DNA from: a virus
Lineage: Duplodnaviria > Heunggongvirae > Uroviricota > Caudoviricetes
DNA: 9,557 nucleotides
Virus record (IMG/VR): IMGVR_UViG_2537561715_000005
Strand: one strand, 5' to 3'
Every line of letters starts with the position of its first letter. Within the stretch, counting starts at the first letter, position 1. The position numbers are program-made. Below are positions 6,001-9,557 of the stretch, piece after piece.

Positions 6001-9000
6001 TGCCGCGCTCTTCATAGGTCAGCTCATCGTAAAACCACCGCCCCAGCCAGTCGGGAAAGTGGATATAGTTCGGCCCTGGTGTGTCACGCCACAGGGCATT
6101 ATTTACACGATCCTTAAACGCATCCGTCTGAACCAGCCACAGCGCGACATCGCCACTGGCTCTGGCACGGCGGGCACTTCTGCCGGTATTATCCGGGAAG
6201 GTTCGGTTAATCAGCCTGTCACGGCGAAGTCCATCCCCCTTGAACAGAAACACCCTGTTGCCCAGTCCGTCACTCCGGCAACGACGCCAGAAACGATAGG
6301 CGTTATCTGTCACCCCGGCTTCCCCTCCCGTATCCACCGCCATGGCCATCAGACGCATGCGCACATCCGGATCAGAAGCCAGCGGCCATGTTTTATGGAA
6401 CACATCCGTCAGCAACAAATCCCAGTCCTCCGGATATGCCGCCGGATCAACCGGCAGACTTTCACCGTTGGGACTGCAGCGCAGTGAATGCCGGATGTTG
6501 TAGCGATCAACAATCCAGCGTTCCCCCTGCTCTCCGTATCCGGTGATCTGCACAACAAAACGGCGATTTTTACCGCCCTGTACGTCAACCGTTGCCTCAA
6601 TAAAACGCACACCATCCGGCACAGATCGCCGGGGAAACGGCTCGGCACGCTGTTCAAGCAGTTCACTTTTACGCTGTTCCGTGGCTGAACGGGGCAGATA
6701 GGGTCGTCCGATATCGGTGTTCACCACCGCTTTCAGGGTCTCTTCACTGCCGGTTCGCTCATACTCTTCTTCTGCCGCCAGCAGTTTAAAAATCAGTTGT
6801 TCCCAGGTCTGAAACGCCGCAGCTGGCCCCTCCATCCAAAATGACGCAATCCGGGAGTTTCGTGGCGTTCCGGTGATACTGCCGTCCGCCGCCGCCCGTT
6901 CACCTTCACGAAGCCAGATCCCCTGGTTATTCAGTTCGCGTTTCTGCTCAGGGGCAATCAGCCCGCGACAATGCGGACACATCAGACGGGCAGCCTGACC
7001 GGCAGCCACAAAATCCGGGTTATTCCGGTATCCGGTCATGTTATCCATCACCGGCTGAAAATATTCCCCGCAGTGCGGACACGGCCAGTACCACCGGCGG
7101 CGGTCTCCCCGGTTATACAGTGACAGGATCCCCGTTGTTGGCGGTGCCTCATGTGCGCCACCACAACGCCATTTGGTATCGGTGATATCCCGCCCCGGTG
7201 AACTCTCGACCAGGGTCATCCCCGAGGACATAAAGGTGGTGGTACGCTTTGAGGCCAGCGTGAAGGCATCCCCTTCCCCGTCCACATTTTCAGGGAAACG
7301 GTCATAATCCGTCAGCGCCACACGACGGTAATCCGAAGAGGAAAAGACGGTGATCGACGGCCAGCCAATCTTCAGGAAGGAGCCGTCAAGAAACATTTTA
7401 TCGTGGACGTTGTTGTCATTACGGGAAGGACTGAGGCGCTTGCTGACCTCCGGACTGTGGCGAAACGTCCTGGAAAGACGCGTTCTGGAATGCTCACGCG
7501 CCTTCGTCTCAGTCATCTGCACCACCAGCATATCCGCCGGATCACAGATGATGCCGTACACAATCCAGCCATCAATCAGCCCTTCGGTTTTCCCGGTTCG
7601 CGCAGGTCCCACAAACACCACCGCGTCATATTCACGGGCTGATAATGTATTAATGGGGTCAATCATATAGGGCGTCAGCGATGACTCCCACGGACCGGAA
7701 GTATTGGCTCCCCGTGGAACCCGCATATAACGCCTGATGGCTTCCGCTACTGGTAACCGGCTGGGTGGGCGAAACAGCGAGGCCACTTCGCGCCAGATAT
7801 CGGATGCGCGGCTATGGCTCTCGTTCACCTGATTCACATATCGGCCTCATCACAACAGTCAATGACTGCCTTTTCCAGTGTGTCGCGGATCTCATCAACC
7901 ACAATCTGTACTTCATTCAGTTGTGATGCAGTCCACCCCCTGTCCCTCTCCAGCCGGTCAGGCCAGGTTTCCAGTACCTGAACTATCGCTTTCACCACGA
8001 CAGAAAAGGACCGCCTGACATCACTGACTGGCACAAGCTGAACAGTTTCATGCTGAAATTTAAGACGCTCGCGCTCGGACTGATACCATGCCTTACGAGC
8101 GTGAGGATCCATATCCTCATCTTCGGAAGATGGTGGTTTTTCCAGCAACGAAGTTATCAAATCCGTCAGGAGATACAGTTTTTTCTTTTCATTACTGCCT
8201 GGTGCAAGAGGAACATCCGCCATTCTGGCGGCAACAGTCTGCCGGTGCAGACCTGAAAGGGCTGCCAGTTGATTAATATTTAACTTCATATTTTTCAGCT
8301 CGCCGTCCATTTACATCCCTCCACATAAACCGCAGAACAGAAGTGACTCTGTTTTTTTGTAAAGAAATGCCGCCATATAAAGATGTCGAACAAAAAACAA
8401 CCACAATCATCATCTTTTTAATACTAACAGCATTAAAAACAACAAGTTACCATCATGATGATGATGACGATAAAATCACAAAAATGCGCCTTTTTCCGCG
8501 CCCGCCCGCCCCGTGTTCAGGCCCACCCCACCAGGAGGACCCGCAAAAATGATAATGGTTATCATTTGCAACAAAATCCAGTTTCTTCCACCATCGCACC
8601 GGACTGGCGACTATGAGGGGACAACACCGCGCTCCGTTAACGCGGTAAACCCCGGTGTGTATCGTTTTTGATTATCCCCGCACACTCGCGCAGAGGATTC
8701 TCCCGGTCGGGCTGCGGTCTCTGTTAATGCAGGAATACGGCGACAATACCGCGCATGAATAATAAGGTCGCTCAACACACTGGCTGTAATGCAGCGGATA
8801 CCATGCGGCATTTAGCGGCATTCATCGTACACTCAACGGTTAGCTCTTCATTCGTGGCATTCACCTGAAAGGTCCTGGAGTGTAATTGCGTACATTTACC
8901 ACTGAACGAACCTTCAACAAGAACACGACCACGCTGCAAAATACGGAACGGAATTGTTCCCTGAAAAGGCTTTACGGTTACCAATAATTTCTTCATGCAT

Positions 9001-9557
9001 TCTCCGAATAACAAAAATACTAGTTAATACACTGAGTGCGGATATATTCCTGAAGCATTCTCAATGCTGCCTGGTCGCTGATGATTCCGTCTCTGATACC
9101 GAGAACGTTTCGTCCAGCAACCGGAGAGAGTTCGACGGCGGCATCATTGCCCACGCCGGAGGTGCCGGTGGCTTCACGCACGGTACCGGGGCAGGTGGCG
9201 TTGATCCGCAGGCGCTTACGACCAGCGGCAACATCAGCACGCAGAGTTTCATTTTCAGCTCTCGCATCGGCTAATTCCCTCGAGTATTTTGCATCGAGCG
9301 CAGCAACATCACGCTGGCGCACCTGCATGTCAGTAATGGTGGCATTCGCCTGTTCCAGCTCTCTGGCTTTTTTATCGCGCTGCGCTTTGTAGGTGAGCGC
9401 GTTGTCACGGTAATGGTTTGTTGCCAGCCACAGCGCACCATAGCCAACCGCCAGGACAATAATCACCACACACAGAACACGGTTCATCTCTCTTTCACCC
9501 CACCAGTCCCGATAACGTCAGGACTCGCCAGGCGGTGGAAAAGAAAATGGCAACCAG

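Follow-up and report, generated by a model that had tools for sequence, protein, structure and literature searches.

The stretch of DNA analysed here, IMG/VR record IMGVR_UViG_2537561715_000005 (9,557 nucleotides (nt); "the window" denotes this entire stretch), is part of an Escherichia coli lambdoid prophage of the Shiga toxin (Stx) phage group. Its late genes lie on the minus strand in the order Rz with embedded Rz1, an accessory slot, a lambda-like cos, a DUF1441-type small terminase, a GpA-type large terminase, and the portal and head genes. The subject of this report is the slot between Rz and cos, which on comparison with relatives reads as a variable accessory site holding two independent conserved units, a 74-codon gene and an element of ~180 nt predicted to fold as a structured RNA.

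An earlier note on this DNA had described a slot of ~450 base pairs (bp) between Rz and cos, regarded it as an accessory insertion site, and taken the 200 bp outside the 74-codon reading frame as spacer containing a single hairpin. The size (~455 bp) and the position of cos, the latter from alignment with the lambda ends, proved right. The segment 8311-9019 was 95-99% identical to Stx2a phages and prophages of E. coli O157, O103, and other strains, and the same slot in other relatives held bor, Rha, KilA-N, DUF4406, PHROG 2571, or Acb2/Tad1-like genes. VT1-Sakai shared 8311-8756 at 98% identity and was without the 74-codon open reading frame (ORF), so that Rz abutted the RNA element; since the same cos-side DNA occurs without it, the gene is considered accessory, dispensable, and variable. 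The spacer view did not hold, as the segment is instead a discrete conserved element, more unusual than the ORF. The window contains 102 ORFs of at least 30 codons, among which the 74-codon ORF is unremarkable in a single sequence, as is a 6-bp hairpin, and the case for both the ORF and the hairpin comes only from the comparison with relatives. The features of the slot are as follows:

8996..8772, minus strand: 74-codon accessory gene (WP_000735655.1), from conserved length and start, the ratio of nonsynonymous to synonymous substitution rates (dN/dS), an AlphaFold2 model, a PHROG 2571 match, and annotation by the Prokaryotic Genome Annotation Pipeline (PGAP)
9005..9002, minus strand: GGAG Shine-Dalgarno sequence, read from the sequence, 5 bases upstream of the ATG of the 74-codon ORF
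8755..8577, minus strand (sense of the late transcript): conserved structured RNA element of ~180 nt, from the nhmmer extent, occurrence in phage records, covariation, and fold z-score
8811..8611, minus strand: 66-codon ORF, judged spurious, which runs over the end of the 74-codon gene and across much the greater part of the RNA element

The conserved element ahead of the packaging genes

A profile hidden Markov model (nhmmer) detected a single copy of the element in the window, and a sensitive search detected it in 398 phage records. In lambda-like phages the copies lay downstream of bor, and in 933W-like Sepvirinae they separated Rz, Rha, or Ant genes from terminase; phages with packaging genes of the HK97 type and Salmonella phage S107 carried the element as well. 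Its position was in most contexts behind the lysis and accessory genes and in front of the packaging genes, while accessory genes lay downstream of it in some loci, e.g., in the cassette between the two copies of PhiR46_1. Conservation ended sharply on both sides, with flanks that differed unrelatedly between phages. Among close relatives the element was ~97% identical and better kept than the adjoining gene; between the window and Stx2_EH2201, identity was 95.5% for the element compared to 82% for the 74-codon ORF.

Full-length, unannotated copies with a divergent middle were found in lambda between bor and lambdap78 (NC_001416 46868-47032; L016 969-1133) and in the cryptic prophage DLP12 of K-12 between borD and ybcV (NC_000913.3 579009-579174; L017 3510-3675). 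A BLAST result of copies restricted to the 5' half in lambda and DLP12 was overturned by nhmmer. Two direct copies were present in PhiR46_1 (L146; 3322-3497 and 5104-5282), bracketing a cassette with PHROG 2571 and PHROG 3054 genes, and two-copy loci were also seen in L032 (5058-5233 and 6007-6184) and L057; the paired copies suggest that exchangeable accessory cassettes have the element at their ends. In GTDB, the core of the element was also matched exactly on short contigs of a Candidatus Nanosynbacter metagenome-assembled genome (MAG), Thiomicrorhabdus heinhorstiae (468 bp), and a soil Proteobacteria MAG (L020, L022, and L025), which most likely represent contamination with E. coli phage DNA.

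The element does not code for protein, with indels of 1 and 10 nt and a variable ATG at its 5' edge. A 10-codon micro-ORF at the 5' end was rejected, its start varying between ATG, CTG, GTG, and CAG and an in-frame TGA being present in the lambda-type copies. Membership of the element in cos was likewise rejected, since it is present in phages with other packaging modules. The copies of the window, lambda, phi419, Salmonella S107, and PhiR46_1 gave no match in Rfam 15 at E <= 1, searches of open-access full text with the core strings returned only unrelated papers, and keyword searches were without relevant result; the element is apparently undescribed.

Folding of 61 non-redundant copies with RNAalifold gave a long irregular hairpin of ~90 nt (helices 1-4) followed by two smaller hairpins. 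The predicted pairings in the window are as follows:

8743-8749/8659-8665, 8731-8737/8673-8679, 8726-8729/8683-8686, and 8709-8711/8702-8704, minus strand: helices of the 5' domain from the alignment fold, to which a GCAG/CUGC helix is added
8641-8645/8627-8631 and 8598-8604/8576-8582, minus strand: hairpins of the 3' part from the alignment fold
8626-8646, minus strand: hairpin ACCGCG-ctccgttaa-CGCGGT, corresponding to helix 5 (alignment pairs 129-133 with 143-152)

The last of these is the hairpin reported before, which is present and lies two bases away from the position given for it. Its conserved stem is CCGCG/CGCGG, the outer A-U pair not being conserved, and variants such as CUGUG/CGCAG retain pairing.

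Across the 30 predicted pairs, 98.2% of the alignment cells could pair and nine pairs carried two-sided changes, values reached by none of 500 shuffles, although such controls overstate significance because the sequences are related and recombining. A shift of the partner by 1-3 columns cut pairing to 35-51%. With the GCAG/CUGC helix included and the last hairpin at 7 bp, the model comprised 38 pairs with 95.3% of cells paired and 12 pairs with double changes; on four of five measures, the value seen was equalled by 0/500 shuffles. Double compensatory changes were found in helices 1, 2, 5, and 6. The pairing was also strand-specific: G-U cells numbered 194 in the sense orientation compared to ~8 that would be G-U in antisense (counted by hand from the pair tables), and among one-sided changes ~130 cells kept pairing as G-U in the sense of the late mRNA compared to ~8 that kept pairing on the other strand. 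The consensus fold had -30.4 kcal/mol in sense versus -9.3 +/- 2.9 for conservation-binned column shuffles (z -7.4, 0/200), while the antisense fold (-6.6, z -0.6) was like its own shuffles. The alignment thus establishes, at the level of sequence, conservation across mosaic contexts, strand-specific pairing, and covariation, and we consider it likely that the element is active as RNA, in the orientation of the late transcript; this confidence is not set higher because the tests depend on the alignment and the sequences share ancestry.

The 74-codon gene and its product

The 74-codon ORF with a reasonable ribosome-binding site had been reported at exactly the coordinates found here; GGAG precedes it, and its ATG lies 23 nt past the Rz stop. 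A search of 5.8 billion proteins returned 66 relatives, all from Escherichia or Salmonella and 56-100% identical. The full-length relatives were 68-79 amino acids (aa) long with an invariant Met-Lys start, and a 5-residue in-frame indel fell within the variable C-terminal third. The earlier note had proposed conservation and dN/dS as a check on this ORF, and frame, start, and length were indeed kept: against three diverged copies (L008, L147, and L150), dN/dS was 0.23-0.51 and dS 0.3-0.8, third positions having changed in excess, and closer pairs gave 0-0.38 apart from one pair. The 74-codon ORF is thus a real gene under purifying selection, linked to the late operon and variable in presence.

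In all E. coli and Salmonella loci read, the gene was downstream of Rz on the same strand, at a distance of 23 nt, with a 4-nt overlap, or ~440 nt away in one lineage. Of 5426 complete E. coli genomes, 1244 carried its DNA (~1630 copies), as did just 28 phage records, mostly Stx2c phages and H-19B; the gene is known from Stx1, Stx2a, and Stx2c phages, and the exact protein occurred on at least 1000 contigs. PGAP labels it hypothetical (WP_000735655.1), as it is labelled throughout. The GC (guanine plus cytosine) content of the gene was 45% compared to 55-57% for Rz and the RNA element.

A crude consensus scan of the minus strand at 8250-9100 detected no sigma-70-like promoter, and a terminator scan detected no terminator of its own downstream of the gene, the sole terminator-like site of the minus strand lying inside the ORF. 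This site is a hairpin at 8945-8960, GGAACAATTCCGTTCC then GTATTTTGCA, and is probably meaningless because the scan yields such sites at chance frequency. The term moron, reportedly defined by Juhala et al. in 2000, had been applied to the slot. For the 74-codon ORF it fits in that this is an extra gene absent from relatives, and it does not fit in that the scans found neither an own promoter nor an own terminator on the coding strand, for which reason the gene is not a strict, textbook moron. With its start 23 nt past Rz or its overlap of 4 nt with the end of Rz, it reads instead as a passenger of the late operon.

The product had been described as unassignable to any family. This stands as far as named families are concerned, with no match in Pfam or NCBIfam, and fails in that the protein matches PHROG 2571 (E 2.8e-28, 99.9 bits) and is WP_000735655.1; the sequence is therefore not new, being already catalogued in RefSeq and PHROG 2571, and is uncharacterised. 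The PHROG 2571 match covered profile positions 100-172 of 291 only. Full-length members of 276-286 aa have a helical N-terminus, a beta-sandwich, and a C-terminal alpha/beta domain, an architecture of which the 74-aa protein has the middle domain alone; it corresponds to about residues 99-172 of the 286-aa proteins at 34% identity. The latter (e.g., PhiR46_1 XSB42772.1) occupy the same slot between Rz and Nu1. 

AlphaFold2 (28 sequences) modelled the 74-aa protein as all-beta with six strands and one short helix at a predicted local distance difference test (pLDDT) score of 90.5, and the protein is confidently predicted to be a small soluble beta-sandwich; the model of the 286-aa relative was poor (pLDDT 58.6). 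No signal peptide or lipobox was seen by inspection. A sequence profile search of the PDB gave a best E of 0.68, and Foldseek of the model found nothing in PDB or BFVD at E <= 0.001. The profile search and structure prediction that the earlier note had also proposed thus delivered a confident fold and a PHROG, and no informative family or fold match. Its statement that nothing resembles a known defence or anti-defence system agreed with the lack of a PADLOC match at E <= 1 and of Pfam and NCBIfam matches.

Only unnamed proteins were recovered by a profile search of 1.84 billion representatives and by two word-index searches, and matches to multi-cystatin and giant repeat proteins were judged repeat artefacts. 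In the profile and profile word-index searches, the family extended to Providencia, Citrobacter, and metagenomic phages, either as stand-alone proteins of 72-81 aa (in Providencia and metagenomic phages) or as a domain fused N- or C-terminally to otherwise unrelated proteins. A Providencia homologue (L153 3826-4149) lies between a Q antiterminator and a holin and adjoins a GrlR-like gene. In a metagenomic lambdoid phage (L155 3814-4098), the homologue has a 4-nt overlap with an upstream 204-aa gene and is followed by a gene of the Acb2/Tad1-hairpin type (PF24729, E 2.3e-17), i.e., anti-CBASS/anti-Thoeris, and then by Nu1. The distribution points to the beta-sandwich domain as a mobile accessory module of late-operon hot spots in enterobacterial lambdoid prophages. 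From this context, a binding or inhibitor module directed against a host or rival-phage component, i.e., a counter-defence or host-interaction role, is possible though doubtful, and on the same reading the protein would be no part of lysis or packaging. 

Separately, a protein of 125 aa (P0002, on a 1477-bp contig) carries a DUF1737 (PF08410) segment fused N-terminally to an otherwise identical 74-aa protein, which is either a rearranged locus or a gene-calling artefact.

Boundaries and surroundings of the slot

The slot measures ~455 bp because Rz ends at 9020 and resemblance to the lambda cos region sets in near 8564. The bounding features are as follows:

9487..9020, minus strand: Rz (i-spanin), final gene of the lysis cassette and upstream boundary of the slot (PF03245, E 1.5e-39)
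9267..9061, minus strand: Rz1 (o-spanin lipoprotein), inside Rz in a different frame (PF06085, E 6.9e-21)
8497..8564, minus strand: cos region, downstream boundary, aligned with the joined lambda ends and resembling the last 45 lambda bases
8310..7834, minus strand: small terminase subunit (DUF1441 family), first packaging gene (PF07278, E 3.8e-48; PHROG 141, E 6e-66)
7837..5714, minus strand: GpA-type large terminase, from profile and ORF calls

The minus strand of 8300-8600 aligned with the circularised, joined lambda ends, giving a cosN-like ACGGGGCGG at ~8514-8506 and, on the minus strand, a cosN-like GGGCGGGCGGGC at ~8500-8511. Similarity to the lambda right end begins near 8564. The lower boundary of the slot is accordingly assigned to a lambda-type cos by its resemblance to the cosN cohesive-end region and the right-end segment. 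The region also contains GGGTCCT at 8542-8536, which we take to be cosQ. 

Between the cosN-like site and the small terminase gene, an A+T-rich stretch at 8440-8480 includes the run CATCATGATGATGATGACGAT and may be part of a terminase-binding (cosB-like) region of the DUF1441-type packaging system. On the plus strand at 8343-8616, some relatives (L005 and L006, 3033-3305) have a PGAP-annotated hypothetical protein of 90 aa across the cos region, which is probably not a gene because the frame is split in the window into 8343-8552 and 8455-8616. Further along, a 723-aa ORF at 2034-4205 (minus strand) stands where the head protease and major capsid genes would be and may encode a fused protease-capsid protein.

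Readings of the slot and comparison with known systems

The combined explanation, that the slot contains a real accessory gene together with a structured RNA element, is judged somewhat likelier to be right than wrong. Both units would be part of the Q-dependent late transcript. The 74-codon gene would be non-essential and translated just after Rz or coupled to it, its beta-sandwich domain occurring alone or fused to various partners at lambdoid accessory sites. The element could, at low confidence, act in cis as a signal that the late transcript carries in front of the packaging genes, e.g., for processing, stability, or insulation; at the transition from lysis and accessory genes to packaging, it might affect processing or stability or provide a stop for transcripts that are not antiterminated. 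The fuller proposal, that the element is a functionally important structured RNA controlling the fate of the late transcript where lysis and accessory genes give way to packaging genes and that the 74-aa beta-sandwich is a counter-defence or host-interaction protein, is tentative.

Several points weigh against this explanation. For the element, the single-sequence fold of 8560-8775 was no stabler than shuffles (z -0.31 and +0.89), many of the pairs are invariant, the structure was predicted and tested on the same alignment, and neither RNA ends nor a promoter or terminator define it as a discrete RNA. The helix-5 hairpin of the window has no U tract and accessory genes are sometimes downstream of the element, and the paired copies of PhiR46_1 also fit a role as a recombination linker. 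For the gene, a single pairwise dN/dS was 0.73, expression is predicted, and an origin as a fragment is possible because the gene represents no more than the middle domain of a longer family. The Acb2/Tad1 neighbour was seen only for a homologue of ~36% identity, which makes it weak evidence by association.

Conservation of the element purely as DNA, either as a recombination linker or as a protein-binding site with an incidental RNA fold, would account for the mosaic flanks, the duplicate copies bracketing a two-gene cassette in PhiR46_1 and those in two other loci, and the non-significant single-sequence fold. A role in DNA only does not predict the strand asymmetry of the G-U-keeping cells, the consensus fold far above shuffles in sense only, or the double compensatory changes in four helices, and this alternative is considered unlikely. 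Still less probable is that the element is a transcription stop or insulator, in which hairpin 5 or a Rho-dependent site ends transcripts that are not antiterminated and Q-modified polymerase reads through, with the consequence that terminase would not be made in the lysogen. The usual position, behind the lysis and accessory genes and before the packaging genes, is consistent with such a stop, as is the GUUUGU that follows hairpin 5 (CCGCG/CGCGG) in many copies. In the window, however, the hairpin at 8626-8646 is followed on the minus strand by GUUGUCCCC without a directly following U tract and was not called by the terminator scan; conservation is highest in the 5' domain, for which a simple terminator has no use; and accessory genes lie downstream of the element in some loci, as between the PhiR46_1 copies.

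With respect to the coding sequences, the 74-codon ORF might be a decaying, still open fragment of a longer PHROG 2571-type gene without function of its own, since it equals only the middle of the 286-aa proteins of the same slot and since truncated and extended variants exist among its homologues. The identity of only 34% to the long form makes the split between short and long forms old. Despite this, the short form has retained its start codon, ribosome-binding site, and length at the dN/dS given above, has ~1630 copies in E. coli genomes, and has stand-alone counterparts in Providencia and metagenomic phages, which makes decay improbable. 

The least credible alternative, rated as very improbable, takes the 66-codon ORF for the true gene in the lower half of the slot, one encoding a small "Rz-like spanin" in line with its PHROG 6954 label. 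The ORF does match that family (E 1.4e-13), and an ORF over the same stretch is annotated with this label in vB_EcoP_phi419 and Stx2a_WGPS9. Against this, its frame is not conserved: in-frame stops fell at twelve different positions among 104 copies, 24 of which stop six bases into the core, and indels (1 and 10 nt) were not multiples of 3. Its start codon lies inside the 74-codon gene, and the records annotate the stretch in differing strands and frames or not at all. It has no Pfam Rz or Rz1 match, inspection of MPHGIRCITASVLSDLIIHARYC... showed no lipobox or hydrophobic anchor, and the true Rz and Rz1 are upstream. The ORF, which exists as reported and had been called compositionally unconvincing, is thus judged an artefact of reading across the RNA element. 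PHROG 6954 itself (window 8611-8811; L011 1976-2221) was seemingly built from ORFs called across the non-coding element, and its label spreads into new phage annotations, e.g., vB_EcoP_phi419.

Of the two units of the combined explanation, the RNA element matters more than the gene, being sharply bounded and strand-specifically structured across lambda-like, HK97-like-packaging, and 933W-like phages. It is present in lambda, DLP12 of K-12, Stx phages, and a large share of E. coli genomes, in the first two without annotation, and if the explanation is true it adds a new feature acting in cis to an operon that is among the best studied in biology. The element explains recurrent mis-annotations, namely ORFs in varied frames and strands and the spanin label, and may mark the site of accessory-cassette exchange between Stx phages. 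The 74-codon gene, carried by roughly one in four complete E. coli genomes and always labelled hypothetical, combines selection, a confident fold, and a mobile domain family, which makes its product a reasonable candidate for counter-defence and host-interaction screens.

Among known systems, bor, which in lambda is located between Rz and cos, and other morons share with the 74-codon gene the slot, the patchy occurrence among close relatives, a GC content below that of the neighbours, and dispensability. However, bor has its own promoter, is on the opposite strand, and is expressed in lysogens, whereas the 74-codon gene shares the late strand with Rz and either follows it immediately or overlaps it, with no promoter or terminator found by the scans and no signal peptide or lipobox. 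The PHROG 2571 proteins are homologous over the beta-sandwich and share the position between lysis and packaging genes, with the differences that the 74-aa protein lacks both the helical part at the N-terminus and the alpha/beta domain at the C-terminus and is only 34% identical. Acb2 and Tad1, cyclic-nucleotide sponges, are likewise small, patchy accessory proteins at the same site, as in the L155 neighbour; the 74-aa protein is without sequence or fold similarity to them and without PADLOC or Pfam match, the link being one of neighbourhood only.

The small RNAs (sRNAs) of prophages in pathogenic E. coli, EHEC and EPEC (AgvB/AsxR, EcOnc, Pas, STnc100, and Esr41) resemble the element in being non-coding and in conserved positions of the same Stx-type lambdoid prophages, but occupy other places, namely near stx and nanS-p on the downstream side of PR', ahead of the holin gene, or inside the structural operon. 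The Rfam models without a match to the element include those of these families. None of the listed Hfq peaks of Sakai Sp15 is at the element, and its identity with AgvB/AsxR, Pas, or EcOnc was ruled out by position and by this peak table. The put RNAs of HK022 are two stem-loops of ~35 nt just downstream of PL and PR that modify RNA polymerase. Compared to these, the element is longer (~180 nt), occupies the opposite, distal end of the lysis region, and has no sequence in common with them, while put provides the precedent for a conserved cis-acting stem-loop RNA that acts on a lambdoid transcript without coding.

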